Positions 629 through 19,952 of a DNA stretch of 20,000 nt are shown in pieces (position 1 is the first letter of the stretch; every line of letters begins with the position of its first letter). Below the pieces are notes generated by a model. It did no database searches. It was not told the DNA's origin and saw only the letters and a program-made list of their open reading frames with translations. The DNA comes from Psammoneis japonica (taxonomy: Eukaryota): positions 673,727 to 693,726 of the forward strand of contig QPGO01000026.1 in NCBI GenBank assembly GCA_008632985.1. The letters run 5' to 3'. Position numbers and translations under genes: made by a program.

Positions 629-1110
629 TCAGAGTCAAATAGATAATTGGTATTAACTTATTTTGCGATGGAATTAAGGAGAGCCAAACGCCGCCTCTAG
701 AAACCAGGCGAAGGAACTCGACATGGCTCGTAACGCCAGGACGCACCGGTGCAGCCTTCGACTTGGATTGGTAACTACTGTTGTCTTGTGATTCTTTCTC
801 GTTTGAGGCCAACGGAAACTACTGGCCGAACTGTTTGTTTCGATGCTTCGGACCCTCTCGGACTACTCTCGAGAACAACTAGAATCTCGTTTCCTTTGCA
901 AGCAGCCTCACACGATGAAATCTACCACGACAACGAAAGAGGCGCGGGCGAGTATATTCGATTTTCTATTTGTCTTTGTGGAATTTTCACTGAAAGAGAC
1001 TGTTTACACAACATATGCAGTTTGACACACTAATTGGAAACAAAATTCTTACAATCAAGAATTGCAGTGCATAGTGCACGACTATATCAAACCAGCTATC
1101 TCCGGTCCCA

Positions 1111-2118
1111 CTACTTGTAGTCAACGTCCTTCTCTTGATCTTCATCGTCAAGAATGACGATACTATCTTGGGGAATGATCACGACGTGTTCCTCTTCATC
1201 TTCTGTTGGAGCACTTGCGGGTACAGAAGATGGAATCGAGTCCTCGGGATGGATCGCATCCGCGCCATTATGATGTTCAGTAATGCAACACTCCCGAACC
1301 ATCACCACGTTCACAGTATCCTCAACCTCTTCCTCATTGGCCATCATGGCTGCTGGACAACAGTTTGACCTTGGAGGATTCTTCCATTCCTGAAAGGGCA
1401 TTCGAAAGGCCCAACGAGTGTAGTGAGCCAAACGTCGCGTGTGTTGGTGCCACGCTTGACCCACGCCACAATCCAACGAAAAGAGGGCACAAATCATGGC
1501 ATTGATTACGGCCAAGAGTTCAACAAGCAAGACATTGACCCAGAGCAAAAGGATGTCTGTCCATAAAAACACTTGAAGCATAATCCAAAAAACGGATAGA
1601 GGAAGAAAGGTCAGAACGTTGAGCTTGCAGCAGTGACAAATCTTGTGGAAACCAACCGCCATGAGATAGAGCGGAGCAGAGATTGTCTCGAGTATGAATG
1701 CGCACAGGACGGCAATGAGAGCAATGGTAAAACCAAAGACACAAGCAAACAAACCACCGTGTTTTCTTTTTGGAGTCTCGGTTGGAGCGGCCGTGTTTGA
1801 TGCTTGTTCCGCTTCAGACGACTCTCCGTTATTATTAGCCACGGGTACACCCGTTACGTGGTGCGTCGTAGTAGCTCTTCCTTCTTCATAGACAGTTTTC
1901 CACGGGTTGTCTGGAGTAAAGAAACGAGGATCAATAGTAACATGGGCGTTTTCAGGATGGAGTGTAGCGATCCAGGATACATAAGATGAGTTTGGATTCA
2001 ACGCCAAATGTGCATCGAGATGACTGCGGATCATACGGGTACTTTCCTGCCGAGACGCAGCAGCAGTCGCTTCTGCATCTTCGTCGCTTGCGGAAGAAGC
2101 ATTTTCCTTATTCCTCAT
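1111..2118 (-). CDS. Hypothetical multi-pass membrane protein (start uncertain; an upstream exon is possible)
   Basis: Long ORF with first ATG at 2118. N-terminal globular motif YVSWIATLHPEN...IDPRF, several hydrophobic segments (GLFACVFGFTIALIAVLCAFIL, LTFLPLSVFWIMLQVFLW, ILLLWVNVLLVELLAVINAMICALF) and an acidic tail. Confidence 0.75.
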   Translation of the reverse strand: MRNKENASSASDEDAEATAAASRQESTRMIRSHLDAHLALNPNSSYVSWIATLHPENAHVTIDPRFFTPDNPWKTVYEEGRATTTHHVTGVPVANNNGESSEAEQASNTAAPTETPKRKHGGLFACVFGFTIALIAVLCAFILETISAPLYLMAVGFHKICHCCKLNVLTFLPLSVFWIMLQVFLWTDILLLWVNVLLVELLAVINAMICALFSLDCGVGQAWHQHTRRLAHYTRWAFRMPFQEWKNPPRSNCCPAAMMANEEEVEDTVNVVMVRECCITEHHNGADAIHPEDSIPSSVPASAPTEDEEEHVVIIPQDSIVILDDEDQEKDVDYK

Positions 2119-2483
2119 TGACACAAACCACAGTAGAAGGAAACAAAAGATGGTCTTGAAGTGTTTGTGAACTGCCAAGATGTGAATGATGATGTGAAGA
2201 AAAAAATGAGGCAATCTCGCCTTCGCACGACTCAACTATCACAAGTGGGTCCTTGTTCTGCGGTCTCAAGTCACAGAAAAAAAATAGAGCAACCCAACCA
2301 ACCAACGAAATCCCAAAAAAGTACCAACATGAAATGAAAATCTCCTGCATCTGCAACATTAGAACCCGATTCTTATTTACACAATGCAAACGCAGCGGAT
2401 TGTAAGGATGTGTGGGTCGTAGAGCCTACAATGTCGACGTCAAGAACCTGGTCGAGTGGCTTGAACCGCAATCCGCGCCTTCT

Positions 2484-2565
2484 TTTCGCGCGCAAATGCT
2501 TCGCTCGCTCCGATTCCCGCGCAAAAGTCTGTCGTCGCGCGTCAAAGATCTTTCAATCTCCCGCC
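2484..2565. promoter_or_regulatory. CpG-rich cluster of E2F-like motifs in a divergent promoter
   Basis: TTTCGCGC 2484-2491, ATTCCCGC 2513-2520 and TCTCCCGCC 2557-2565 resemble the WTTSSCSS E2F consensus. They lie between divergently oriented genes. Confidence 0.3.
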
Positions 2566-2960
2566 CCTGCTTCCGAGGAGCGACCAGTTGGGAGTGAGAG
2601 CGACGTGCGACCCACGACCCACCCACACTCTGGGGGACGTCTTCGGAAGTGAGACTGTCGAAGAAAGTTACGTAGAATTTGTACTAAAACAGTCTGTCAA
2701 TCAGTGCGATTGGGTATTTGGGACCTCTGGACAGATCCTACGTGTTTTCTTGCGCGTACAAAATGTACTGGAAAAACCCCCAAACGCACTGGCGATCAGA
2801 CCGCCATCGACGATCTCACTTCCAAAGACGCCCCCCAACTCCACACTACACATCAACGCAACGCTTCACAAGAAAAGGTTGCAGCGTGTGCTAAATTGAT
2901 TGTGTTTGTTGCCTTCTTATATTCTTGAAACCAATTGTATTTATACATATTATTCACAAT

Positions 2961-4967
2961 ATGTCATCGTTGGCTACAATCAATGTTGACTGGTCTTCCG
3001 ATACCGCCTTGATGACAACGTTGATTCCAAAGTCTTCGGCAACGGTTGCCGATTGGATTTTGGAAATCATAGAGCGAGGAGGTTTAGCAACGTGGTGGTA
3101 TTTTCCCCATTTACCACAAGGAGACAAAATTGTTGATTTTTGGTGCAATTTTCGACAGGGAATACGAATGAACATTATAATGGAACCACAACGACGTGAA
3201 CAACAACAGCGCGTGGCTCATTATCGTTATTTTGTTCGAGCCTATCACAAAGTGGGAAGCCACGAAACGTTTTGGGATCCCTTTTGTTGTATAGCCGATT
3301 TGTTACCACCGGGTCAACAATATCATGTTTCGTTGTGGTTGGAGCCTGTCGAGTATTGGGTGTATGATTATGAACGCAGAAACGACAATGATCCCATCAA
3401 TTGCGATGATCCAACACCGCCTCTTTCCACAACCATGACGTTGGCATATGAACCACCAAGAAGAGGAGCTGTAGAGGGGTGGGTGGTTCAAGACGCAGCA
3501 GCAGATAACAATGAAGACAACAGTGATGCATCTGCAGCAGCATCGTCGTCCTCGAATTCATCTTCAGGCTCCTCGACGAGTCACATGGACACAGAAGAGG
3601 AATTGAACAATGCCTATCACAAGGAGGCATCGCCACCAACCGAAGAAGAAGCAGGAAAAGACAGTATCCTGCAGGCGGCCAAAGTGGCTAGCTTGGCTTC
3701 AACTGCCAACAAGGAACAGGCGACTACTACAGCTGCTGCTGCAATTGCCTCGGAAAAGATAGACACTGCAACGTCTTCCGCTCTGGCCAGTCCTGATGAA
3801 AAGGCGAATGAGGCTACCGCAAAGGCAAATGGGCCCGAGACAGCAGCTAATGGCAGCGGAACAGAAGAGACGGAACCCACTGTGAAAGAGACAGAGGAAA
3901 CAAAAGACGACACCAACGAAGAAGCTAATGAGGAATCAAGTGTTGTGAATGGCGCGATAAAAGGGATGGGGACAAGTGTTGAAGATAAAGAGGAAAACGC
4001 AAAAGAAGCAAAGAACGATTCAACTGCTAACAAAGAGGACGGACCTAGCAACCATGAGGAATCAAAAGCTAAAACAGACATGGCCGACGAAAATGAAGAC
4101 GAGGATGATTCGAGCTCAACTACAAGTAGTAGTAGCAGTAGTAGCAGCAGCAGCTCGAGTTCGTCATCATCTTCCTCTTCGAGTTCAAGCGAAAGTTCTT
4201 CTTCGTCATCCAAGCCAGACGAAGAACATGCTCCAGTACCAGTCACGCAAGAAGATCCGCCAGAGGAAATAGAGCCTGATTCGCCAGAACAGAAAACAAA
4301 CGACGTGATCCCGGATTCACCAAACGACAAGAAGGAGCCTGGCAAAGACAAAGACAACGTGATCCCGGATTCACCAAGCGACAAGAAGGAGCGTGACAAA
4401 GGAAAAGGTGACATTGATCCAGACCAAGACAGCGTAGTGGATCGTGTACCCGACAATGACGAGCAAAAGGGTGTCGTTTCACCAGAGGCACAGAAAGAAG
4501 AGGGATCCAAGAAGGAGGAAGAGGATTTGTCGAGTACGAGCTCATCATCGTCTTCTTCTAGTAGCTCCGCCTCCTCGTCGTCATCATCATCTTCTTCTTC
4601 TACATCATCATCATCATCCGATTCTAGTAGCACTAAAGAAAAGCAAGGAGAAGAGACACAATCTAAAACTACCAAATCAATGGAGCCAGAGGCACAAGCC
4701 AAAGAGGAGCAAGAAAAAGGGAAACAAACTACAGCCACCAGCAAAAAGGAGCAAGAGGTACAGATTGCCAAGCAAGAAGAAAAACAAACCGAGAAAGTAA
4801 ACGAAGAGAACCATGATGCCTTGAAACCGGAGAATGGGACTTCCAATGACACGAGCTCGCAGCAAGAGACTCCTGCAGCGGCGAGTCCAACTGCCGGCGT
4901 GAGGCGTTCCTCTCGTCGCAGGAAACCATTGTTGGATCCAAATTTCAAGTTTGGAAAGAAAATGTAA
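2961..4967 (+). CDS. Acidic, Ser-rich, largely disordered protein with an aromatic N-terminal domain and a basic C-terminal RRSSRRRK motif
   Basis: 668-codon ORF from ATG 2961. Three poly-Ser tracts, Glu/Lys/Asp-rich linker, C-terminal NLS-like RRSSRRRKP. No signal peptide. Confidence 0.8.
   Translation: MSSLATINVDWSSDTALMTTLIPKSSATVADWILEIIERGGLATWWYFPHLPQGDKIVDFWCNFRQGIRMNIIMEPQRREQQQRVAHYRYFVRAYHKVGSHETFWDPFCCIADLLPPGQQYHVSLWLEPVEYWVYDYERRNDNDPINCDDPTPPLSTTMTLAYEPPRRGAVEGWVVQDAAADNNEDNSDASAAASSSSNSSSGSSTSHMDTEEELNNAYHKEASPPTEEEAGKDSILQAAKVASLASTANKEQATTTAAAAIASEKIDTATSSALASPDEKANEATAKANGPETAANGSGTEETEPTVKETEETKDDTNEEANEESSVVNGAIKGMGTSVEDKEENAKEAKNDSTANKEDGPSNHEESKAKTDMADENEDEDDSSSTTSSSSSSSSSSSSSSSSSSSSSSESSSSSSKPDEEHAPVPVTQEDPPEEIEPDSPEQKTNDVIPDSPNDKKEPGKDKDNVIPDSPSDKKERDKGKGDIDPDQDSVVDRVPDNDEQKGVVSPEAQKEEGSKKEEEDLSSTSSSSSSSSSSASSSSSSSSSSTSSSSSDSSSTKEKQGEETQSKTTKSMEPEAQAKEEQEKGKQTTATSKKEQEVQIAKQEEKQTEKVNEENHDALKPENGTSNDTSSQQETPAAASPTAGVRRSSRRRKPLLDPNFKFGKKM
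4303..4410 (+). repeat. In-frame 54-bp tandem duplication (VIPDSPxDKKE x2)
   Basis: acgtgatcccggattcaccaa.cgacaagaaggagc starts at both 4303 and 4357. Confidence 0.9.
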
Positions 4968-5087
4968 TTTATTTCATCAAAGAAGTTCTAGCTAGAGGAG
5001 GGATGACTTTCAATACGTTCTACTTTTATTTACACTTGTCACAATGAAGCGATTGGATTCTACAAGTACGCGACGGCAAAACTGAAC

Positions 5088-5110
5088 GGGGGGGGGGGGG
5101 GGGGGGNNNN
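5088..5110. other. G19 run ending in an assembly gap (nnnn 5107-5110)
   Basis: Seen directly. Contiguity across this point is not guaranteed. Confidence 0.95.
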
Positions 5111-5713
5111 ACGCAAAGTTTACCAAGGGTATTGGGAGTACCTTGCTGGAGTGTGAATGACTATCCATGCTAAATGCTCATTTCAGCTACAATGATGAAC
5201 AAGGATATCCTTATATTGGGATGCAGAAGAAGCACGTGAGAGGACTCAAAAAGCTAGCAGCAAAGATTGAAGGAGTCATGTGAATTGTTCAGAAGTTCGC
5301 CTCTTTGGGGGCAGCGACGACTTTTGCAAGCGTCCTTTGAATCCTGTATTGCCAGATTCACTACGTACATTTGCCCCGCGCGAAACTCATCTTTGAAAGA
5401 ACTACGGCGAGCTGAACCGGGACAAGTTCAGTTCCTTGCTAGAGTGCCTAAGGACAATATCGGGAACATGGAACGATGACATGAGCGTTTCATGTCTCGT
5501 TCGCTTGTTAGTTCAATAAGTGCCTTTGAAAACTCTCAACGCCAGCGCTGCTCACAGCCGTGATGGAATCCTGATTCTCGTCCTCGCTGCCGTCGTTTGA
5601 GGATACCGACAAGTTGGTGTTAGTGTCTTTTTGACTTTTCTAAACTAGGCACGAGGAGAAGTAAATAAGCTGCTTATAGAAGTAGTATATAGTGAACCAA
5701 GTATGTGCCCAAC

Positions 5714-8173
5714 TCACTTCAGTCGTCTCGTCCGATCATCCATGTCTCGATCTCGTTTCTGCCGGTCACTGTAGTCCAAGCCATGGAATCCACCCCCGAC
5801 TCGATCTCGGTTTTCCCAGTCAACGCCACTTAGAAATTCTTTTATACTTTCAATAACTTCGTGTAAAGTCATTTCAGTTACACCATACTTCCTTCCCAAA
5901 AATCCTTTCATGTTTGCTCTTGCCAGATCATCATTATACCTCTGCACAAATTCATCCTGAGACTGAGCTGTTTGTCCTTCATTTCTCAGTGCGCAAAAGC
6001 ACTCGTCGTGGCCGTCATAAATGTGGCGAAAATCAAACGTAACATCGCCAGCATCAGTTAAAACACGGAGCTTCCTGTCAGAAGCGTCATTGAAGAGACG
6101 GGCATTTTCCCCGCACCCCCTACACCTACCCTTGACTCTAAACCGAAGGCTCCTCTTCTTTTGCTGCTTTGTTACAATATTCAAATCTCTGTGTCTTAGC
6201 ATTGGCTGCTCTTCGTCTTGGACACTCACTTCCGTAATGTAGCGGAACTCTGGGTCGCAGTAGGACCTGCATGGACGTGATAGTGAAAGCGGTTAGTGTG
6301 AGATGTTTGAATGCGGTGTTTGACGAAAAATATTCCTGGACTTACGTTGCGGCAGAGTTGTATTCGTTCAAGAAACTGTCACCGAGATAGCCAAAGTCTT
6401 TCTCCAAGGGATCACCCGTGAAATCCAAGTCATAGTCACTTTCAAACACATCTTGTTGCCAATCGCAGTTAACCACCCCATATTCTATGACAGTGTTCAC
6501 CGATTTCAAATTCGATAAGCTTCCATGGGCCTCAGTCTCGAAGAGCGCTTCTTGGAAAGCATCTCTGAATTCTGCCTCCATGGGTGCGCGATTTTCGGTA
6601 AGGCCTCCAGCGCACTCGCAGGTTGTTGGCGTCTTGTCCGCCAACACAGAAAGGACCTTCTCCTCGTTTCTACGATTGCCGGCGTCAAAGAGATGTGTGT
6701 CTTCTGTGCAGCCAATACCTTCGCAACTTCCAGTGACTCTATACAGAAAGTTTCGTGAGGTGAGTTTGTGGCCTTCCATGTGTTTCAAGATGTGGTCCGT
6801 CTCTACCACCGTGACTCTCTCCACAACCCGTTTCGAATCCATGTCGCAAACATGCTCTTCTTGACTGGGGGCATTAAGAGCATTGTACGTGTCACGAAAT
6901 GCGCTTTCAAGGATTGGAAATATCTCTTCATTGCTCTCGTCGGGATCGTGCAGCGTGTGTTCCACAAGGGCGTACGTTTCAAAGGTTCCCGAACGTTTGC
7001 AGGACGAAAGACCTTTGACATGCCCCCCTACTGACTTTTTTGTGGTAGTCTGTGCCTTAAGACCTCCCTCCGACTTGTTTGTCGTAGCTCGTATCGGGAA
7101 TGGAGTTGGTTCAGCCGTTTCTCTTGTGGTTGGCTCGGGCGTCGGCTCCTGAGTTGAGGGTATCGTTGGCGGTGGTGTTGGCGAAGGCGTGGGATTCTGG
7201 GTGAGAGCACGTGCCGTGGCACCACCGCCTGTCTCACCGTTCTGGTCTATGCCTTCGGTTTCTAATTCCTTCGTCAGCGGGCTTCTTGATGGGGAAGAAT
7301 TAGAAGCTGCGACTTGCTTCTGAGGGTTTGGAGCTTTACACCGTCTCTTCACCATGAACTTCCCACCAACGACGTTCCCTTGACAAGAGATCTTCCTTTT
7401 GCGCCATCGTTATTCTTGAGTTTCATTTTCTTACCTGAATCATTGTCTTGAAAAACTAACGTTGAGTTGTACGCATTCCCACTAAACACGATTGAGTCAG
7501 TTGCGACGTTGCCAACAATATCAATGGCGTGGAACTTGTTTCCTTCGATGGCAATCCTCTTGGCGTTGGAGTTCATACTGATGAAAGCTTTCTTGGAGCC
7601 CGTCACAGTATTCTTTGATACGATCAATGACTTTCCTTTCTTCAACATGTTGTTGACTATCTTGAGAGTGTGAACAGAATTCTTATCAACTGTGATAGTG
7701 TCTGCTAGGACTCCTTGGATCTCGACACTGGAACTGGATCCGGAACTTTCGTAGACTTTAAGATTTCCGCCTATATGAACGTAGCATCCCTCTGCTGAAA
7801 TGGAAACCTGGCTCGTTCTTTTTGCCTTGATACCCGTCTTGAACATTGGACAAACATTTTCTTCAGATGAAACAACCAAACTGCTCCTACGTTTTAAAGT
7901 GATCTCTCCTTCAAAGGTGACTTGTCCAGTGATGATGAGTGTCGCTCCCCTATTCACTTGGACTTTATCATAAATCGTGACTGGAGACGATCCCTTGATC
8001 CCTCCGTAAATTGTGCATGTCGCACCATTTGGTACGTTGACCTCGTCGCGTTCAAGACCTCCATGTCCGTTTATCTCTCCAGGCGCCTTTGATGTGCCAC
8101 ACAAGAACTCACCCCTTGCAAATGGGGCACTCAACGCTAGCGTCCAAGAAACAAAGCAACGCATAGTCCTCAT
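5714..8173 (-). CDS. Secreted modular protein: signal peptide, beta-solenoid-like N-domain, Pro/Thr linker, two Cys-containing modules. Three listed ORFs probably form one gene.
   Basis: Signal-like MRCFVSWTLALSAPFARG and repeated (I/V)xGN/NN rungs. PTPSPTPPPT linker. Module YN..CD..R..V..YRVTGSCEG.GC...LF is repeated as YN..CDPEFR..FRVKGRCRGC...LF. Intron 6345-6267 joins two ORFs in frame. The junction near 7375-7435 needs a -1 shift or a short intron. Confidence 0.7.
6267..6345 (-). other. 79-bp spliceosomal intron
   Basis: GTAAGT donor, CTAAC branch point, TGCAG acceptor. Splicing gives NSAAT-SYCDPEFRYITEVSVQ in frame. Confidence 0.9.
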
Positions 8174-8601
8174 TTTGGATCTTTTGGACTTGTTCTCAAA
8201 CCAAACATGACGAGAAAAAATGGGATGGACGTCGTGGTGAAAACCATACCACCCGGGGCTTAATTAAAAATCGTTTGTAGCAGGACATTCTAAGATATTA
8301 GAATGTCTATGAACAGTGTCTCGTCACTGGGCATAATTTTACGATCATGTGCGGGTGCCGTGTGACGAGGAAAAGATGAAGGAGGGCTTATGAGGCAAGC
8401 ATTGAATGACCTCACGTATTGCCCGAATCAACATTAGTCGTAGATTGATTCATTCGACTGAATTTGTCTATGATCATCTCCGTGACTCATTTTCGTGGAA
8501 CAATTTGAGGGTCACCCACATGATTTGTTCTTGCAACATGACCAGCATTTCATTTTTTCATCCGCCGTGTGCTTCTCGACCCACTTGGTCCAGCACGCAC
8601 C

Positions 8602-9442
8602 TGTTGGAACATTGGGGTTAGAGGCAGTTTTCACAGGACAGACACAGACAAAGACACACTGAGCGACGATTGTGGCGGGCAATGTGGCAAGTCGATCTTG
8701 TCAGATGCAAACGAAAAGGCAGCCAAGGCTTGGAAGCAGCTGGCGCTCATTCATCAAGATGAGGTGGAAGCACTTTTTTTAAGATTGTTGGCACAATTGG
8801 TTTGCAAGCTCAGTTGAAACAGGAGTGGAAACACACGTCCTGTGGCAGGATCATCCCGGACGGAAGAAATCACCAAAAAAGAAGATGGACCCAGCAAGGA
8901 TGCCAATGACGCCTGGAACAAAAAAAAGGAACAAGCCATTGGTGGCGATGCCAGTGGAAGGTGCCAAGGAACACACTGGCAAGTCTTGAAAGACCTGCAT
9001 CAGCGGCTCACATTGGGGGTTGACACTCACCCCAATCCAGCTGAAAAGGCACCATGGGTGTTGGACACACCTGCTGCAGGACCAACAAGAAACCGGGTGG
9101 CACAAGTTTTGCATGGAGTGAGATGAAGCAGATTGAGTGCTGGCAATGCAACAAGTTTGTTGGGCATGTGAGAAGGAGGGTTGCCCTGACAATGATCGTT
9201 CACTGTCAGCAGAGTTGGATGATGTGGGCCATTGGAATTGGCAGAACAGCCAACATGTTGTTGGGTTGCATGGTTTCCAAGTGTCATCCACCCATGCTTG
9301 ATGGGCATGAGGTTGACCAGTTGACATGGCTTGTGTGAAGAAGTGTGTTGGAGCATCAAGGTCAGAGTCAGTTTTTGCAAGACAGACAGACAAAGTCACA
9401 GTGTGATGCACACTGGCGACAATTTTGGACAATGTGGCAAGT
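8602..9442 (+). repeat. Diverged direct repeat, 8602-8692 vs 9346-9442
   Basis: 34 of the first 43 columns are identical and 8 of the 9 mismatches are transitions. Both copies end caatgtggcaagt. Confidence 0.85.
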
Positions 9443-9513
9443 TTGTGTTTGCAACTTGGTTTGAGTTGCAGGTCTTGTTGTGTTCACTTTTTAGCTTCTG
9501 CACCTGGCCAACA
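8602..9513 (+). mobile_element. Degenerate LTR-retrotransposon remnant (partial LTR, gag zinc-knuckle relic, LTR)
   Basis: Two diverged copies start TGTTGGA (8602, 9346). The second ends CCAACA at 9513 (TG...CA, 168 bp). A frameshifted CCHC-like CWQCNKFVGHVRR..CPD lies at 9138-9190. No TSD found. Confidence 0.5.
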
Positions 9514-11470
9514 TGGCAACAGTGATTGACAACAATGGCAACGTGTTTTTGCAAGCCACGCAGCAGGCTCAGAGATCATGGTGAGACCAAATGCACACCA
9601 GCTGGCAAGTGGTGAAGCTCCAACAGCAACAGGAGCTCTTCACGGGGGGGGGGGCATGCAAAAGCACTTTGTCTGTCACTTTTCTTGCTTCTTTGCTGAA
9701 CAGCTGGGCTGGCTTCACTTTTTGTGCATGCTCAGCTGGGTGTTCAAAGAATGCTTCAAAGCAGCAGCACAGCAACATTGGTTTGGTGCTTCAACCTGCC
9801 CACATCTTTGCTGAGCAATGTGTGTGTCACACCACAGCAGTTGTGTTTCTTTAACTTTTCTCAATCACTTGTTGTTTGCAGGCTGCTAGAGAAAAAAGGT
9901 GAAAGCACACTGTGTGCAAGCAAGAGATGCCAGCACACCAGTGTTTGGAGGAACCAAGCCTTCAAATAGAAGCACAAAAAAGCTCAACAAAAAGATGTTG
10001 ATGTTGTGCCAGCAAGGACTTCTGGGCTTGTCATTGGTGGTGTTGGATGGCACCTGCTCTCTTGTGCTGCCTGCCTGTGCAATCTGGGTGGCAGCAGCAG
10101 CAGCCATTGGTGCACATGAGTGGGCAAGCAAGTTGATTGGCACCCCACCATGGCAACAAACGGCTGACTCACTGCTCTCTCTTGCCTCTTGCCATGGTGT
10201 GCAAGAAACCAGAGCTGCTCTGACAAAGCATGCAGAGTGCGGCAGCATGCCATGTCGACTGCATCATGCTGGTCCGGATCCAAACACTCAGAGAAGCGAG
10301 TCCTCATCAAGAAGATTGGTTGCTTGTCTGCGTGCCGATGAGGTCACCTCAACAGCGAATCAGCTGTCCAAGCTGCCGCATCATCACTCTGGACAACCTG
10401 GCACTGTTGGCTAAACATCTGTTGCACCGACCGAGGGAATCTCAGTGCAGTGTGCGCGCAAGTGCAGCAACACTTTCGAACAACATTTGGGCATGAAAAC
10501 AGAAGCAAACAATGTGTGGGGCAAGATGTGATGACAATGGCATTGTTGGACTGTGCTGTTGTTGCTTAAATTCAGTTCAGAAATCATGAATTCAAAGTGC
10601 GATGAAGACAAACTGACACCAAAGGACAACAAGATCGAGACTCTTCGACACCTGCATCGCCAACACGGGCAACAAAGAACAAAAATCAACGTGTGTTTTG
10701 CACGTCTCATTCATTGACACTCACTTCTTTCCTGATTCCTGAGAAACACAACACATGCAACATCAGTGTTGCTGTCTCTGACAGGCTGTCATGTGGCCAC
10801 ACACACTTGGAAACTGCCGAGTGACGAACGCAAACGGAGTCGAAGCACATTCTGTCATTGTGCTTTTGCAAGCATTTTTTGTTCATTCTCCCATCCACAA
10901 GAGCACGAAGCATTGAAATGAATCAATGTTGAACAGCGCCACAAAATGCGTTGCTTTCTAGAGTGCGCACGTGGCAAACACACCAACAAACCACCACGGT
11001 TCATCCACAACATTTGCGTCTGTAGAGCAAAATTTTTAGCACCAGCGTAGAAATGGTGCCAAGATCTTGTGCAGACTTGTGACATGGCAAGACCGCAACG
11101 GAAGATTGCACATTTTTTTCTCAACCCGAAACCTTCGCCATTGTGCTGGAAGTGTTTCGGCAGCCATCGCAAGTGCACCATGCACTGACAATCAGCTCAT
11201 TGCATCATTGATCTTCAAAGGAACATCCCACAATGCTTGTTTGCTTGAAATTGCATGGAAGTTGAAGAAACTCAGTTGCCAACAATCAGGAAGAAATGTT
11301 GCAGCATTCCGAGGGTGCCGACAAGCAGCAACACGGCGGGGTTTCGTGTCTGTTCATCTTGTTGAACCAACAGCTGGAACATTGTCTCTTTCGAACATTC
11401 AAGGTGAGTTAAATGTGAACATTGCAATTCAAAACAATCCCAAAATGTTCTCAGATTTTTTTCGGTACAA

Positions 11471-11527
11471 ATCTACGCAGCTTTGTCGTAGATGGCACAG
11501 AAACCCGTGGCAAGGTTCTGTGCCATC
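11471..11527. repeat. Two overlapping inverted repeats
   Basis: atctacg/cgtagat (11471-11477, 11487-11493) and gatggcacagaa/ttctgtgccatc (11491-11502, 11516-11527). Confidence 0.8.
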
Positions 11528-11822
11528 GAAAATGCTCAGGACCTCGCTGCGCGTTTCTGTGCATGCCGGTAATGAGCAGGGATATCGTCTGTAATTGACA
11601 AGAAATATTTTTAGTCATATGATTCGACGCTAATACCACCGCACGTAAGTTGAACCGTGGTGAAACGGGGTGCTGTACGCGCGAAATGTACGTGCTACCG
11701 TAATCCGCGCCTTGCTTGCCTTCATTGCCGCGATGTGTTGAATTTCAAGACATCGATCTCTAGCTAGAGTGATAGAGCGACAAGAGAGCTCCAACAACAG
11801 CAACAACAACAACCACACGACC

Positions 11823-13084
11823 ATGTCGGCTCCTTGGGCCCGAATAACTGATGATGCCTACAAGTCATGGCTTCTGGAGGCCATGACAGCTGAAGAGTAC
11901 AATGGACTTGGACCTGTTGAACGACGAACTTTACTGACCCAATTTCAGCAGCAGCAACAGCAGGCGCCGTCCCCGAAGCAATTCTCCGAAGAAACCGTTG
12001 CTGGTCTTGCACAGTTTGCAACGGATTATCAAACAAGAAAAAGGACAATTGTACTTTCTGGAGCAACTAGTTCAACGAAAAATGACCTGATGGATATGCT
12101 GAATATGCAAGAGAAAGGGGCTGGCTGGAGAGATAGAACTGCTGTTTCGCAGTCAGGGCAGCATGTCGATGGGTTTTTGTGGTTAAAAAGTAACGAAGAT
12201 TCTGACGAGAATCGTGAAGGGTATATGGCTCATCTCAATGCCTTCATACAAAAACCAGTGGAGTATGCATTAGCAGATGTGCAGCCAGATAGGGACCTGT
12301 TGACGGTACATTTCCTTCGATCAGAACCCGAAAGTCGACAAATACGTGGAACTACTGATGTTGTCATCGCAAAATCAGTTCACGTTAACAATGCGGCAAT
12401 TCGGAACAACATTGAAGCTCTGATTGAATTGAAGAAGCCCAGAACTTGCAAGAAAAAGATCACACCCCACAAACAATTGGTGAACACTTTGCGGCCTCTT
12501 ATCTTAATATCCATTGTCCGGTGGTTTCCGTTTTGACCGATTTGAACGACAGATGGACTTTCTTCTGGTTTGCAAGAGGAGAGGATTGTTTGGGTTCGGC
12601 TGCTCTCTACAAGATCTGTCTCAAGGGATCAAGCGCAGCGGCAGAGGCAAAACACATACTGAATAGCCTTTTCGTCAAAGACGTGCCCGAGGACAGACTT
12701 CCGGCCACCTTTGCTAATCGAATTTCACTTCAGGCTGCCTTGGAGTGTGTCGCAACGAGCAAGAAGACGCGAATTGAAAGTAGTGGCCATGATGAGGGAG
12801 CTGCGAAGCCTGCTGGTGGGTCGGATGAGTCTCCAACACCTAAAAGAAGCCAACATGCCTCTTCACAGAGGGGTGGCAAATCAGATCGAAACAATCAAAG
12901 CATCGTTCGCGGGAATAGCAGTGCCCCAATGAACATGACTGAAATGTTGAGCCTCTTTGCGCCTCCTGCCGATAGAGATGTAGCCAATGAGCTTGACCTG
13001 TTAGATATGGTGGACGAAAATGAACAGTATGAAATTATCCGTTCATTTGCTTTGAAGCACATCGTGCCTTACATGAAGGGATAA
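11823..13084 (+). pseudogene. Crinkler (CRN)-like protein with a restriction-endonuclease-fold domain, interrupted by a -1 frameshift near 12440 (pseudogene or assembly indel)
   Basis: IRGTTDVVIAK...ALIELKK (PD-(D/E)XK-like) is in one frame. QTIGEHFAAS...PVVSVLTDLNDRWTFFWF follows in the -1 frame. One extra base in aagcccagaac joins them. ATG at 11823 with a poly-Gln N-terminal header. Confidence 0.7.
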
Positions 13085-13448
13085 CTGTGAAATCTCTTCC
13101 GGAGCTGTTCTTTGGCCTTTGGGAGAAGCTGAATCGTATCTTTCATCACGGCTACGAATATTAGTATGCATAACGCTGCAACTTTGCTTGGTCAATCCAA
13201 AAGGAGAATGGATCAGAGGAGCGAGAAACGAAGCGGAAGACATGGCGTAACAAAAGTTCGATATGCACGATAATTTAGTTGCTTCTACATGTATGTGGTC
13301 TCTTAATTGCCGAAAGCGCTTATAAAGAAGGATGTGCGTTCTCTCTAGCTAGCTGCTCGAAGTTTGCTATCGTACCGGTAGTTGACCAACAAAAAGGCGC
13401 ACAATTATTGGGGTGCCGAATGTAGTCGTCGTGTCTCTCCGTAGCTAG

Positions 13449-14255
13449 CTAGTCTATGTCTTGTGAGCTAGGATCCACAATGTTAAGTTTGCCATTTCGA
13501 GGTTCAACAGCATGCATGGTGACACCCAGTTGATCGGCAAACTTTTGCGGTACATTGCGTTCTTGGGACTGGTTGTCAAGTTGATGACAACAACTCCTGG
13601 TCTCCCACCTCACCCGCACCGGCCAGTGCGATGAGCGTAGTGCGAAGCATCTGTTGGCGAATCAAAGTTGATCACATGTGTCAAAAGGGGTGAGTCGAGA
13701 CCTCGTGCTGTCAGCTCTTTAGCAACAATGATGCCAACTTAGCCTTCTTGTAACTGAAGCAATCTTCTCACTCCCTCGTCCACCGTGAAGAGGGGCGGCA
13801 ACAATGCCCATGCCCTCTCTAGCTTTTCCACAATGACATCTACCTTTCAAGAGTTTTTGGCAAAAACTGGTGTCTGTTGTGGCAATGGATCAGCATGCAG
13901 TGTTCTTCGCAAAGTCTCAAGAGCATGTCAATGATGCGGAATGTGCACGACACCGTGAATTGCTGTTCAACTGACTCGAGCAGCTTGCCCTTTTCCAGAC
14001 CCTTCCTTTCCACCATCCAATGATGAAGTCACAAGGACATTGTCCTTGTCCACCATTGCAGCTGTGCAATCTTCTTGCAAACATGCTTCTAGCCAGCCAG
14101 CTTCGGAGAGCCCAGCATGTCTGATGCAGTCACAGAGCAAAGGACGGACTGCAACAGATCCCCACGTCATTTCTTCAGGCACTGGGCAATGACATTGGCA
14201 GGATTACGGTGAGGCTTGCACTTCAGCAGAGCATCAAACTCATCCAAAAGAACAA
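13449..14255 (-). pseudogene. 5'-truncated DEAD-box RNA helicase pseudogene (not recognisable in the ORF track)
   Basis: Manual minus-strand translation: motif II LLDEFDALL (DEFD 14244-14233), motif III LCSVT (from SAT), APLHGG, motif V ELTARGLD (ARGLD 13708-13694), HVINFDSP, motif [17 protein letters not shown], stop TAG 13451-13449. Several TGA stops (probably from CGA) and frameshifts. Confidence 0.9.
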
Positions 14256-16190
14256 GATCACAACTCCGAAAACTCACAAAGAATTGCAACGCTTTGTCGG
14301 CATGATCAACTGCTGTCGAGTCATGTGGCCTCAACAATCTCACGTTGTTGCTCCTTTGGCCAGACTCACCTCAACACCGGCAAAGTGGGATTGGACCAAA
14401 ACGGAAGAAAAAGCCTTCAAAAATGTGAAGCACATCATCTCCAAAGACATGTCACTGTCACACCCAAATTTTGACAAACCCTTTGAGATGTGTGCTGATG
14501 CGAGCAATTCTCAATTGGGAGTGGTTGTCATGCAGAACAGTTGGCCTGTTGCTTTCCACAGCCGCAAGCTGAATGGAGCACAGATGCGTTGTGCTGAAAT
14601 GGAAGAAAAAGAACTGTTGTTCACAGTGGAGATGTTAAAAGAGTTCCGGAACGTGCTGTTTGGCCAACAGATGAATGTGCACATGGATCATAAAAATCTC
14701 ACACACAAAAACTTCACAATGGACAGAGTCATGCACTGGCATCTGACAATGGAAGAATGCAGTCCCAAACCAATTTACCTCAAGGGCAAGGCCAACATTG
14801 TTGCAAATGCAATCAGCAGACTCACCATGAAAAAAGTGGAACCTGTGGAAAACCTCAGCAATGAAGAACCAGCTGAAATGTTGCCACCAAAATCCAGTGA
14901 CAATGTCTTTCTGTTGACGTGCAAAGTTCTTGACACTGAACAAAAGCAGGACAAAGACATTCTCTCCAGATTGTCGGGTGCAACACATCACACAAAGATT
15001 CTTCATGGAGGTGAGCGAGGCTGGTTGCTCACATGTCACAAGGACAAAATCATCACTCCAAAGACATTGCAAAAGGCAGTGACGACAGATTGGTGTCACA
15101 CTCACCTTCTTCACCCTGGCACAAACAGAACAGAAGAAACACCATCTCACAAAACACTTGTGGTGGTCTGCCCTGCATGATGACATGCAAAAATGCGTGT
15201 GTCAAAATGTGAGATGTGCCAAAAATTCAAAAAGAAACAGAAGACATTTGGACATTTGCCCCCCCCCCAAGTGTGCAGAAACCAGTGCCATGGGAATGAC
15301 TGTGTGTGGATCTCATTGGACCATGCAAAGTGCATTGCAAGGGAAAGAACAAAGAACCCCCAGCCCTGAAATGTTTGACAATGATTGATCCAGCAACCAG
15401 ATGGTTTGAAGTTGTGGAAATTCCAAACAAGGAATCCACAACTGCAGTTGGACTGTTGGAACAAACATGGTTGAGAGCAGACATCCTTGGCCGTTGTCAA
15501 TTGCACGTGACTGTGGAAGTGAGCTCATCAGACACTGATTTAAAGACATGGTTGAAGAGGGCTGTGGAGCTGCAAAGTCAAGCCTGCAACCACACAAAAT
15601 CCACAGTCGAGCGCAACTGTAGAATGTGCACATCAAGTGCTGGGCAATGTGCTGCATGCATTTGACCCACAACATTCACCGTTGGATGCTGCTGATGATC
15701 TGTTTGCTGGTGTGCCATCCGCAGCAGCCTTTGCTGTGCTTTCTGCATGTCACACCACTGTGCAAACTGCACCAGGACAATCAGTCTTCAATGGAGAGAC
15801 ATGATTTTTAATGTCCAACATGTTGCTGATTAGAAGTTTGTCCAAAAGCAAAAACAGCAAATCACAAATGGAGACAATGCCAAAGAAAACGCTCGATCTG
15901 TGCACTCCATGCATGCACCACAGAGCAGGTGAGAAGACACCACTCGAGAAACACTTCCAAAAATTAGAACAGCTGCATGCAGGGCCACATGCTGTGATGA
16001 CAACGGCACACGCCAATGGCACAGCAAAGATCAAACACAGTGATGTCATTGACGGCTGTCAACATTCATTGTGTTGTGTGCCGTTTTTGACGAATGATGT
16101 CACAATGTGCAATTGGGGAGGCGAACGCAACATGCATTGTCATGTGCATTTTGTGTGTGTGTGTGTGCATTCATTAACAGTTTGGTGACC
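14255..16190 (+). mobile_element. pol: Degenerate 5'-truncated Ty3/Gypsy retrotransposon: RT thumb/connection, RNase H, integrase, GPY/F region, PPT, short LTR remnant
   Basis: Domain order RT-RH-INT. Motifs GMINCCR, CADAS, AFHSRKL, DHKNL, VANAISRL, HLLHPG, CVDLIGP, MIDPATRWFE, DCGSE, NPQS..VECAHQ, GPH. Frameshifts after about 15140. PPT-like ggggaggcgaa at 16115-16125. Confidence 0.93.
16152..16167. repeat. (TG)8 microsatellite
   Basis: Seen directly, inside the presumed LTR remnant. Confidence 0.9.
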
Positions 16191-16475
16191 CTCAAAACAA
16201 CAGCCAAGTGGTTCATGACATGCGCCGAGCGAATTCGGGTTGCAAAACTTTTTTTGCGTGTGCACGCACAGATAGATGCTCGATTTTACTACGCGACGCC
16301 CGCGCGCGCGTGGTCTTACTCCGAGCAACATTCAATCGTGGGAATCATTCCAACGCTCTCTTCCACTTCACTCGCAGGCAGTCCACGTAGAATTCGTACC
16401 ACATTCTACACAACAGCTGCCAGTCACTGAGAGAACGCATTCTCGCAAAAAAACAACAAAAACGCGACAAGCACC

Positions 16476-17959
16476 ATGGGAAACGAAAGTTCCAAGGCAC
16501 GAAAACAACGACAGGACAAAAAGACTCTTGTCCAAGTCGTCAAGTCTTCCTATGCTACTGCCAGTAAGGCTGTTCAATTCCATGATACACCCGCTACAAC
16601 CGCCACAACGGTTGCTGCTGCTTCGCCGTCTTCCGGAAAACATAATTTACTCGTCACGGGTCGATTATCCCATGTCCGCGATACATATCACATGTCTCCT
16701 CAAGAGATTGGACACGGTCATTATGGGATTGTACGTAAATGTCGTCATCGTGAAACGGGTGAATGGTGTGCAATCAAATCGATTCAAAAATCTAAACTCA
16801 GCAATACCAAAGTACTCGAGAGAGAAGTGCATGTCCTGCAAGCACTGCATCATACGCATGTGTTGGAATTGAAACAAATCTTTGAAGATGAACATTATTT
16901 GCATTTTGTCACCGAACTATGCAAGGGAGGTGAACTCTTTGATGAAATTTTGAAACGAGAGCATTTTTCCGAAGTGGACGCAGCGCAACTCATGCGGGAT
17001 GTGCTGTCGGCGATTCGGTATTGTCACGATGAGAAACAGATTTGTCATCGGGATTTAAAGCCCGAGAATTTTTTGTTTTTGAATCCAGATGGAACACACA
17101 TTAAAATTATCGACTTTGGTTTGTCGAGATTTGATTTGGATGGAGAAATCATGAAAACCAAGGTCGGAACGCCGTATTATGTCGCACCGGAAGTGTTGCG
17201 ACGACGATACACCAAGGCGTGTGACATGTGGAGCTTGGGAGTCATTACGGTATGTGTGTGTAGAAAACAGAGCTATTGTTGTTGTTGTTTTATAATTTTG
17301 TATTGCACATCCTCACCATCTTTTCTTTTCTAATTCACTTAACTACAACACAGTACATTCTACTCTGTGGCTACCCACCCTTTTACGGGGATTCCGATGC
17401 CGAAATTTTCAAATCCGTTTCGGCGGGGTATTATTGCTTTCCACAACCCGAATGGAATGACATTTCCGATGAAGCCAAGGACTTTGTCAATAATTTGTTG
17501 CAAATGGATCCCTCCAAACGCATGACGGCAGCCCAAGCGTTGGAACATGAATGGATTACGAAGTATAACAATGAGACAAAACCAAAACCAGAATCATCAT
17601 CACAGCGAGCACAACCACAGCAAAAGCGGAATAGTGTCAAGAGTGAAAAGTATCAACGTGATCGTGCCTTGCAAAAACTCAAAAAGGCAACCTATGCCTA
17701 TTTACAAAAAAACAAGCAACATGCCGATAGCAATGCTTCGACGAGTAGTGACGAAAACAATTCGGAAGATGAAAAACGCATCAAGAGTGCCTTTGATCAT
17801 TTTGTCACGTCGGATTCCAAGGGATTGTCGGTGGATAATGTCAAGGATATTTTAAGAGATTCGGTACAAGCCAAGGAATTGATGGATTTGGTAGATACCA
17901 ATCATGATGGAAGAATATCCTTTGACGAATTCTATCAAGCCATTGTTCAAAAGGAATAA
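16476..17959 (+). CDS. CDPK: Calcium-dependent protein kinase-like, 2 exons (16476-17249, 17354-17959), 459 aa
   Basis: MGNESS myristoylation motif; GHGHYG, AIK, HRDLKPEN, DFG, APE. A 104-bp GTATGT...ACAG intron joins SLGVIT-YILLCGYPPF. Junction LQKLKK and EF-hand DTNHDGRISFDEF. Confidence 0.95.
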
Positions 17960-18243
17960 ACAAAAACTATATTAGAATCGTGAGGCAGTGTTATTGCTTG
18001 ACAGTAGCATAGTCCGTCCTCTCCAGTATGATAGTGATAGTAGTGCTAAAGAGTAGCAGAATCCACACACAAGCTCGGTGTGGTTGCAGCTTTATCAAGC
18101 CGTTGTTCAGAAGGAATAATAAATTAGAATCGTGAAGCAAGGTGTTGCTTGGAGTAGTAGTAGTCCGCCCACTGGTAGTAGTAGGAGTAGAAGTAGTACG
18201 AAATAGTAGCAGAAAGCACAAACATTCGCGGTGTGGTTGGTGC
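17931..18243 (+). repeat. Diverged ~160-bp tandem duplication of the CDPK last codons and 3' UTR
   Basis: tatcaagcc(a/g)ttgttca(a/g)aaggaataa...attagaatcgtga...agtagcagaa...cggtgtggttg starts at both 17933 and 18093. Confidence 0.88.
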
Positions 18244-18290
18244 AAAAGCAGCATGATTGATGCAAAAGGATGAAATACAAACATGCAATT

Positions 18291-19952
18291 CTAATTGTTG
18301 TTTACCGAGAAAGCATACGCGGAACCAGAATGCTCGCCATTGACATCAGTCCGATGAGCACCAACTCCAATGACGCTTCCGTTGGCTGACAAGGAAACGG
18401 AATATCCAAAATTATCATCTTCAGCCTCACCATTCAAAGAATCTCCGACTTGATTCCATTTAGACATGGTGATGTCGTATTGAAAGATTCGAACTTGACC
18501 AACATCGTTCAGTCCATTGACGTCGTGCTGCCAACCACCGACAGCCACAACATTTCCATTTCCACTCAATGATACTGAGACACCAAATCCATCATTTGGC
18601 TGTTGCGTTAACAGAGTTTGGCCACGTTGATTCCATTTAGACGCCGAGCGGTCGTACGAATAAACCAAGACTCTCTCGTCACTTCCAGGTGCGCCCACGG
18701 CCATGGTCAAGCCGCTATCGTCAAGAGAAACAGAACGTCCAAATTGGCCATTAATAACCTGTCCATTGATTGGACTACCCAATGGATGCCATTCTGATGA
18801 TGTAGAATTGTATTCATATACAGACACTTTACCAGCATTGGCTTCAAATGCCCCAACTCCAACAATGGTTCCCAGGGCATTTATGGACACGGAACGTCCG
18901 AAATGGTCTTGACCAAATAGTGCCTGTCCGAGTTGCCTCCAGGAGGATGCGGCACGGTCGTATTGAAACAATTGAACTGATCCATAATTCTCGCCGTTTC
19001 CCAAGCTACTCGAATAAGCTCCCACTGCAAGAATGTCGCCCGCGTCCGACAGCGACACGGAAGAACCAAATCGATCATCAGCGTCTATTCCAAAAAAGGC
19101 ACCACCGAGTTGGACCCAACGATCTGATGCAGAGTCATATTCAAACACTCGAACGTGGCCAACATTTTCTCCGCCACTGTCATTCCATGATGGAGCTCCA
19201 ACCGCAAGAATTGTGCCATCTCCATTTAACGAAACAGACCTTCCAAAATCGTCACCGTCGGCTTGTCCAACCAGTTCTTGACCAATTTGTATCCACTGTT
19301 GGTCTACGTCATTCCGTACGAATTGATTCCTCGACTTTTTTGGGCTGTGTCGATTGACAACAACATAGCCGGGATCAGAAGAAGATTGCTCTGCTCCGAT
19401 AGCCATGACACTACCATGACGAGACAAGGACACCGAAGTGCCAAAATAATCTTTCGCAGCTTTGCCGTGCAATACTTGTCCAGCGGGCTTCCACGTCCCA
19501 TTTGAAATGGCAGATGCAGAAGCTTGGTCAACTGGGGAGATGGTGTTGGCTCTTGGTTGGAAATCGGAGTCATCGTTGATGTCGGGTTCGGTATGCGACC
19601 GTTCCATATGGGACCGTTTTCCCATGGCTTCACTCCTACAACAACACCAACAATCGTAGCAATGATTGTAGTCGCAACTCCTCCAACGACGATGCAACTT
19701 TTGCGACGTCTTCTTATCCCTGCCATTGTTCGAATCAGTTTGATCAACATGGGGTTCTGTATCATCAGAAACCCTAATGACAGGTTCCATAGCCGGGGCT
19801 GGGTGAAGAAGAATGTTCTCTTCTGGAAGTGAGCCGCTTCTTCGTCCGCCACTTGCTCTGGACAGAAGGCGTCTTCATCCGCCTCTGCTCTATACAGAAG
19901 GTGCCGATGCTTCATTGTCATCGCTCTGCTCGCCACCTTTATGCGTTTCCAT
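18291..19952 (-). CDS. FG-GAP (integrin-alpha-like) 7-bladed beta-propeller protein, probably type II membrane-anchored; 5' region disrupted
   Basis: Seven FGxSVS(L/I)xxxGxxxxxG(A/G) repeats in the 18291-19790 ORF. The TM helix CIVVGGVATTIIATIVGVVVGV plus a PT stalk lie in a different frame (about 19700-19530). The in-frame ATG at 19952 is followed by stops at 19892 and 19877. Confidence 0.8.

Follow-up and report, generated by a model that had tools for sequence, protein, structure and literature searches.

A Ty3/Gypsy remnant and an unrelated repeat in a diatom-like genome, probably rewritten by transitions at TpA and CpG

Why should the pol frame of a retrotransposon be almost devoid of tyrosine? 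The question is raised by contig QPGO01000026.1 of Psammoneis japonica, in which positions 673,727 to 693,726 (20,000 nucleotides; 'the window' below, numbered from its first letter) contain the remnant of a Ty3/Gypsy pol gene. A stop-to-stop frame at 14125-15180 encodes 351 amino acids with one Tyr (0.3%), against a median of 3.7% in 240 relatives. At 14255-16095, TpA occurs 8 times, whereas base composition predicts 131 occurrences and the frequency found elsewhere in the window predicts 71 (Poisson P 2e-21); CpG occurs 31 times against 96 expected, and TpG and CpA are counted 202 and 227 times, respectively. The TpA depletion and the Tyr-poor frame had been pointed out in an earlier interpretation made from the letters alone (the sequence-only reading), and both stand; the peptides quoted there (GMINCCR, LSHPNF, EMCADAS, AFHSRKL, RCAEME, VHMDHKNLTH, WCHTHL, DLIGPC, SACH and GPH) are all found in the translations. 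The answer that we consider probable is that a dead Gypsy copy and an unrelated repeat in a diatom-like genome have been rewritten by two context-specific transition processes acting on chromosomal DNA.

The first step concerns the extent of the anomaly. The interval 14255-16095 given originally is indeed affected, but understates it: a sliding profile of observed/expected ratios (o/e) for dinucleotides along the window, together with a listing of every TpA and CpG, reveals two TpA-poor domains of about 2.8-2.9 kb each.

8470-11410 (D1): repeat unrelated to the Gypsy pol, apparently non-coding; 12 TpA seen, 194 expected from base composition and 114 at the rest-of-window rate (Poisson P 3e-34); o/e 0.06 for TpA, 0.41 for CpG and 1.82 for TpG/CpA
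13485-16273 (D2): domain holding the Gypsy pol remnant; 18 TpA seen, 194 expected from base composition and 108 at the rest-of-window rate (Poisson P 8e-27); o/e 0.09 for TpA, 0.41 for CpG and 1.83 for TpG/CpA
Rest of the window (14.3 kb): o/e 0.54 for TpA, 0.96 for CpG and 1.18 for TpG/CpA

Taken together, TA, CG, TG and CA make up much the same fraction of dinucleotides within the domains (0.254-0.255) as elsewhere (0.238); the losses of TA and CG thus correspond to the gains of TG and CA. TpA loss is even along each domain, whereas CpG loss is graded, with o/e of 0.06-0.2 in the cores and 0.4-0.7 near the edges; in D1, the core at 9000-10250 has 0.06-0.14 and the sides 0.4-0.7. The edges are sharp, within about 100 bp. 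On the left of D2, TpA o/e falls from 1.12 at 13300-13499 to 0.17 at 13500-13699, and on its right TpA is back to normal between 16175 and 16273. Adjoining intergenic DNA is TpA-normal (o/e 0.75-1.12 at 13100-13499 and 0.8 at 17751-18500), and the nearest host genes, 200-330 bp from the domain ends, are unaffected. Among stop triplets in the six frames of the domains, TGA numbers 133-140, and TAA and TAG 10-16 each; this erasure of TAA and TAG accounts for the long open frames there.

The left shoulder of D2 (13485-14166) is partially depleted, with TpA o/e of 0.17-0.38 at 13500-13899 and 0.08 from 13900 onwards; no protein match was found for it.

The coding content of D2 is as follows.

14167-16140 (+): Ty3/Gypsy pol remnant, 5'-truncated and frameshifted, with the end of the reverse transcriptase, RNase H and integrase; read in frame 1 to about 15262, in frame 3 to about 15530 and in frame 1 again from about 15565
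14392-14757 (+): RNase H-like domain; PF17919 (E 2.5e-21, residues 90-185) and PF17917 (E 1.7e-18, residues 115-211) of the frame from 14125
15264-16053 (+): integrase part, from tblastn segments split over two frames; the Pfam rve match is weak (E 0.02, under the curated cut-off)

The order of RNase H followed by integrase fits Ty3/Gypsy pol. By tblastn, the residues of relatives from about 384-420 to the C-terminus align with 14167-16140, the frame shifting near 15264 and again near 15565; this copy lacks about 400 residues at the N-terminus, including the reverse transcriptase core itself. These relatives are polyproteins of 1000-1500 amino acids with RVT_1, RT_RNaseH, Integrase_H2C2 and rve domains (PF00078, PF17919/PF17917, PF17921, PF00665). 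They are at most 49-54% identical to the window frame and come mostly from marine metagenomes, some from the diatoms Amphora and Epithemia. No protein closer than 54% identity is present in the protein catalogue, and no close paralogue was found with the window frame in viral and metagenome contig collections. No direct repeat of at least 35 nucleotides was found in 8000-16800, and the locus has neither the long terminal repeats (LTRs) nor the intact frame of a Ty3/Gypsy element; it is the remnant of an LTR retrotransposon, not a whole one. No tandem repeats were found either. At the right end of the remnant (16141-16179) lies a short TG-rich run of about eight TG units, which was passed over as a repeat in the contig placement described below.

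D1 is of a different nature. None of 15 frames examined in it has a Pfam match, the longest (210 amino acids, 8854-9483, minus strand) has no phmmer match in 1.84 billion representative proteins, and 120 Gypsy polyproteins give no tblastn match to it.

The direction of the changes can be read from conserved positions in pol. The stand-in for the ancestor is the majority residue of 120 relatives, at columns with at least 25 sequences and at least 60% agreement. Of 258 such columns, 174 are unchanged and 84 changed, 71 of the latter requiring one nucleotide change. The fate of individual residues is as follows.

Tyr (13 columns): 1 kept (14776); Cys 6, His 4, Phe 1, Trp 1
Ile (16 columns): 3 kept; Val 7, Met 2, Thr 2, others
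Arg (18 columns): 7 kept; Gln 4, His 3, Cys 1, others
Thr (23 columns): 11 kept; Ala 5, Met 4, others
Control residues, kept: Phe 9/9, His 6/6, Gln 8/8, Lys 17/18, Pro 17/18, Trp 7/8

The earlier statement that every Tyr had become Cys or His is thus accurate for 10 of the 13 columns and fails for the retained Tyr, the Phe and the Trp. Sorted by nucleotide context, the single-nucleotide replacements fall into these classes.

At TpA: TA>TG 14, TA>CA 11
At CpG: CG>CA 12, CG>TG 7
Off TpA: A>G not after T 2, T>C not before A 1
Off CpG: C>T not before G 2, G>A not after C 5
Other: transversions 10, ambiguous 7

The A:T>G:C changes are TpA-specific, and the two strands contribute in similar measure: of 28 unambiguous A>G or T>C replacements, 25 lie at TpA, in a 14 versus 11 split by strand. 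The polarity, strand symmetry and near saturation proposed in the sequence-only reading are borne out. It had also separated the TpA changes from CpG decay, correctly: 19 of 26 unambiguous C>T or G>A replacements are at CpG, and some relatives (see below) have lost CpG only. Among the 13 columns that need two steps, three are Ile to Val encoded as GTG, which would fit a double hit in T|ATA, the preceding base being presumed.

Sequence context also seems to matter among the TpA that remain. The motif YTAR (TTAA, CTAG, TTAG/CTAA; Y, pyrimidine; R, purine) makes up 19 of the 30 surviving TpA. Outside the domains it accounts for 96 of 551 TpA of the window (Fisher P 9e-8), and among relatives for 5324 of 22094 (P 6e-6). 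RTAY accounts for 1 of the 30, versus 151 of 551. YTAR contexts are, tentatively, relatively spared. In 28 polarised TpA events, a pyrimidine follows the edited A in 21, and no preference is apparent two positions before.

Is this composition damage, or native to the clade? Among 482 metagenome loci encoding relatives, the best 80 have TpA o/e of 0.59-1.06 (median 0.74), and 22 further loci from viral and genome collections have 0.52-1.11. None of these 102 loci falls below 0.52, which marks the composition of the pol remnant as damage. CpG loss can occur without TpA loss: o/e for CpG and TpA is 0.05 and 0.81 at locus L094, and 0.12 and 0.62 at L060. The two processes are therefore separable. 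With L084 included, CpG o/e at three such loci is 0.05-0.32 beside normal TpA of 0.62-0.81. L084 is also one of 19 Gypsy contigs (L084-L102) assigned to bacterial bins of metagenome-assembled genomes (e.g. Sphingobacteriaceae, Pseudanabaena, Shewanella); these are almost certainly eukaryotic contigs mis-binned into prokaryote genomes.

Ten Gypsy relatives from public metagenomes are Tyr-poor as well (0-1.8%), with Cys or His at the same conserved Tyr columns (P0162, P0239, P0224, P0208, P0158, P0175, P0159, P0147, P0230 and P0231). All ten come from families other than that of the window, to which they show 38-47% identity, and are annotated as 'hypothetical proteins'. Five of them are 76-89% identical to one another, and their variable columns include C/H (4), C/H/Y (3), I/M together with I/M/T (5), C/R (5), L/S (4) and L/P (4); the C/H, C/H/Y and I/M/T columns are the hallmark of independent hits on separate copies. 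Judged from these protein sequences, the TpA scar seems to be present in other families and organisms, where it yields spurious gene calls.

Copy number was assessed with contigs of a public run of the same organism (X1), 1284 of which were placed on the window at a likeness of at least 80%; the single-copy depth baseline is about 56-60. Summed contig depth is 650-5750 on pol (14020-16126), and in D1 it is 480-2180 at 8602-9504 and 790-1050 at 11010-11611. With depth so far over the baseline, both domains are repeats. Within the TpA-poor DNA, depth is only at the baseline on 13418-14019 (59) and 9806-10106, which are single copy at this likeness. The differences between the window and these contigs are mainly transitions in even counts (A>G 142, C>T 127, G>A 122, T>C 122). 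Transversions number 12-30 per class. Even counts of this kind would come about among copies that are all saturated to the same degree, one having turned a given ancestral TA or CG into TG and another into CA. Of about 680 variant places 40 were viewed, and 25 of these set TA or CG against TG or CA, including TG-versus-CA doublets at 10374/5 and 10405/6. A hand count of 379 unaligned letters of the contigs gave no TA at all. The contigs reproduce the locus at 99% or better and show many equally TA-poor paralogues, but run X1 may be the assembly's own source and is not independent support.

One contig of the same locus departs from the window at 13729 and 14065 (TG against CG) and at 13951 (CA against TA). 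At 8000-8300, the sole run contig differs at five places in about 130 bases, with TG where the window has TA (8034, 8139, 8165) and, at 8136, CA where the window has CG; it could be another allele, or a paralogue whose TpA-poor domain extends further left. The differences at 13729, 13951, 14065 and 8034-8165 are weak hints of recent activity.

A contig of about 86% likeness, present in both X1 and run X2, covers 10293-10446 in D1. At 10334, 10379, 10383 and 10395 it keeps TA or CG against TG or CA of the window, and TA is normally frequent in the flanks that were seen. This contig may represent a homologue of part of D1 that has been mutated less, or not at all.

The sequence-only reading knew of no description of such a process, a claim that has been overtaken. 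In mutation-accumulation lines of the chlorarachniophyte Bigelowiella natans, two integrated viral regions received 231 of the 302 new point mutations (Mettrop et al., bioRxiv 10.64898/2026.01.13.699255), and the preprint, as far as its main text goes, reports exactly the TpA-to-TpG/CpA spectrum: all the GC-biased ones among these mutations were on TpA, giving TpG or CpA. The same source describes 124 clusters poor in TpA and rich in CpA+TpG (thresholds: Rho TpA at most 0.43, Rho CpA+TpG at least 1.52), as well as 324 low-TpA coding sequences enriched in reverse-transcriptase and DDE domains. An ADAT2 homologue is proposed there as the enzyme, also as a hypothesis. A literature search for diatoms and other stramenopiles returned no report of a TpA or repeat-induced point mutation (RIP)-like process besides this preprint.

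The likeness to the B. natans case, as its main text presents it, is close. In both, A>G and T>C changes occur only at TpA and on both strands, TpA loss is coupled to a clustered gain of CpA+TpG, and foreign or mobile DNA is hit, including sequences bearing reverse transcriptase; the values for D1 (0.06, 1.82) and D2 (0.09, 1.83) lie beyond both cluster thresholds. There are also differences. The host here appears to be a diatom, hence a stramenopile, whereas B. natans is a rhizarian. The targets are a high-copy Ty3/Gypsy element and an unclassified repeat, compared with giant-virus or virophage inserts that are single copy. TpA depletion here approaches saturation (o/e 0.06), as against 0.45 in the B. 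natans region derived from a nucleocytoplasmic large DNA virus, and TpA frequency outside the domains is 3.9%, as against 6.0% reported for B. natans. CpG decay accompanies the TpA loss here, while the words 'CpG', 'diatom' and 'trinucleotide' are absent from the main text of the preprint.

Other known systems resemble the locus less. RIP of ascomycete fungi also acts on DNA in a specific context, on repeats with some spill into flanks, and disables transposons. It converts CpA to TpA, however, raising TpA/ApT (above about 0.89) and lowering (CpA+TpG)/(ApC+GpT) (below about 1.03), and it creates stop codons, whereas the process here removes TAA and TAG. The indices in the domains are 0.079-0.105 and 1.73-1.77; fungal-type RIP is rejected, and the sequence-only reading had already noted the opposite direction of change. 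Methyl-CpG decay is present, with CpG o/e down to 0.06-0.2 in the cores and the replacements expected of it (Arg to Gln 4, His 3 and Cys 1; Thr to Met 4). It cannot explain the TpA loss, has a different profile along the domains, and is found alone at L094 and L060. The APOBEC3 and ADAR systems of animals share deaminase-type hypermutation of mobile elements, and ADAR favours U before the edited A (Mettrop et al.). Their substrates are cDNA or RNA and their action is strand-asymmetric, in contrast to the 14 versus 11 split here and to the hits on non-retroelement DNA. APOBEC-type editing is rejected on the lack of a C>T excess outside CpG (2 events). RNA-only A-to-I editing carried by retrotransposition is rejected likewise: 11 sense-strand T>C at TpA stand beside 14 A>G, and neither D1 nor the left shoulder of D2 carries retroelement coding. 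GC-biased gene conversion is rejected, as it would oppose CG>TG/CA.

Four further explanations were weighed. Error-prone repair, for instance patch filling of the Pol eta type after T:G mismatches left by methyl-cytosine deamination, is unlikely, although it would account for the loss of TpA and CpG in the same domains. In somatic hypermutation, Pol eta favours A-to-G at WA motifs (W, A or T), and such a preference would also hit ApA; here, 14 of 16 unambiguous A>G changes follow T and only 2 follow A. Transversions at A are few (4), and the even profile of TpA loss is at odds with the graded one of CpG. Furthermore, every hypermutation in B. natans was on TpA, according to the preprint's main text.

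Editing before integration, in an APOBEC3- or ADAR-like manner on retrotransposon RNA and single-stranded cDNA, would mean that the copies were born mutated. The element is a retrotransposon, and if both its RNA and the minus-strand cDNA were edited, the sense strand could in principle acquire A>G as well as T>C. This account is improbable even so: D1, which has no recognisable retroelement coding, is equally depleted, and the depletion extends leftwards beyond the pol remnant by 680 bp, where the DNA has a single copy at a likeness of at least 80%. A loss of about 90% of targets in one cycle would be extreme, and a copy with such damage is unable to go through another. The B. natans mutations, as the preprint describes them, struck DNA that was already integrated.

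Untargeted drift is just as improbable. It supposes that unconstrained DNA tends towards a TpA-poor, TG/CA-rich equilibrium and that the domains are no more than the neutral DNA of greatest age; in its favour, TpA is also scarce outside the domains (o/e 0.54). Against this, intergenic DNA directly adjoining is TpA-normal, the edges are sharp, and positions outside TpA and CpG are still well conserved, as in the 174 unchanged pol columns; TpA and CpG targets have therefore mutated far faster than other sites.

Least credible of all is a native composition (for example, horizontal arrival from a TA-poor genome) or an assembly artefact, for which there is the composition itself and nothing further: the loci of relatives are TpA-normal (0 of 102 below 0.52), conserved Tyr are replaced and the frame is broken, and the X1 contigs match the locus, with the reservation on their source made above.

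The preferred explanation, rewriting by two transition processes, can be outlined as follows. A dead, 5'-truncated copy of a high-copy Ty3/Gypsy element and a second, unrelated repeat 2 kb away, both intergenic, would have undergone A:T-to-G:C hypermutation on either strand, so that TA became TG or CA and about nine tenths of TpA disappeared. Alongside it, ordinary methyl-cytosine decay, strongest in the domain cores, would have turned CG into TG or CA. The TpA process would be the same kind of event as the de novo mutations of the B. natans lines. Of all this, the TpA signature with its polarity and strand symmetry, the limits of the domains and their repeat status are demonstrated. In chemical terms, we infer deamination of adenine to hypoxanthine at 5'-TA, perhaps favouring TAY, by a candidate enzyme of the ADAT2/TadA type. 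What is recognised may be the silenced or foreign state of chromatin and not homology between sequences in itself; this is suggested by the CpG decay in the same domains, by the single-copy state of some of the affected DNA and by the single-copy targets in B. natans. The role in genome defence put forward in the sequence-only reading is likewise conjectural; it would have elements disabled by missense changes (Tyr to Cys or His; Ile to Met, Thr or Val) and by the loss of TA-containing signals.

This account is weakened by several points. Targeting of repeats alone does not explain 13485-14020 and 9806-10106, which are single copy at a likeness of at least 80% and nevertheless TpA-poor. The ancestral states were read off relatives that share only 35-50% identity, as opposed to copies of the window's own family, and independent hits within that family rest on the symmetry of counts and two doublets. 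The assignment of the host to diatoms, for its part, is drawn from protein similarity only. The apparent TAY preference is inflated, because Tyr codons are TAY by definition. Unlike in B. natans, where the preprint describes mutations caught in real time, the locus offers a sequence scar and no de novo event; contigs of the same locus are nearly identical to the window within D1 (2 letters in 1011; 0 in 1219), and present-day activity of the TpA process in this organism is unproven.

A broader proposition is somewhat short of an even chance: that TpA-directed hypermutation is a chromatin-targeted genome defence across the SAR (stramenopiles, alveolates and Rhizaria) supergroup, shared or multiply evolved, which in diatoms is saturating on retrotransposons, accompanied by CpG methylation, TAY-preferring and YTAR-sparing, and spreads a few hundred bases into flanks. 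The Tyr-poor Gypsy frames in metagenomes suggest that the TpA process occurs commonly in marine life.

We assign the case to a kind of hypermutation described very recently, as an instance from a new lineage and on a new class of target; it adds saturation, co-occurring CpG decay and a context bias among surviving TA. If the host is a diatom, a process so far reported from one rhizarian alga would also exist in the ecologically dominant and genetically tractable diatoms, ordinary retrotransposons would be hit and not only viral inserts, and the enzyme and the targeting signal would become testable by knock-out. Silenced mobile DNA could be located by its composition, with TpA o/e below 0.1 and TG/CA near 2 as a simple marker. 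Long spurious open frames of this kind can mislead gene callers, as appears to have happened with several Tyr-poor 'hypothetical proteins' in catalogues. The TpA process also drives AT to GC, opposing the usual mutation bias.

The surroundings of the domains bear on the identity of the host. The best named matches of the neighbouring kinase gene (50-61% identity) are only to diatoms and the bolidophyte Triparma. No match to it is nearly identical, as would be expected from B. natans, whose proteome is in the public catalogues. An FG-GAP protein encoded in the window falls in a cluster mostly from Bacillariophyta (with a high score). The genes of the window are long and intron-poor; the B. natans genome is intron-rich. 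The host is accordingly taken to be, in all likelihood, a diatom or a close relative. Between the domains, at 11742-13084, two overlapping open frames (264 and 218 amino acids) have normal TpA and no Pfam match. Run X2 covers these frames and the kinase gene, and hardly the domains. Contig joints at 12435-12524, 12586-12946 and 12502-12975 are without GT..AG ends and were not read as introns. Further left, four N at 5107-5110 mark an assembly gap. An open frame of 690 amino acids at 2895-4967 contains low-complexity runs of Ser, Glu and Lys with long poly-Ser tracts, and it is the cause of the strong skew of A over T at 3000-5000.

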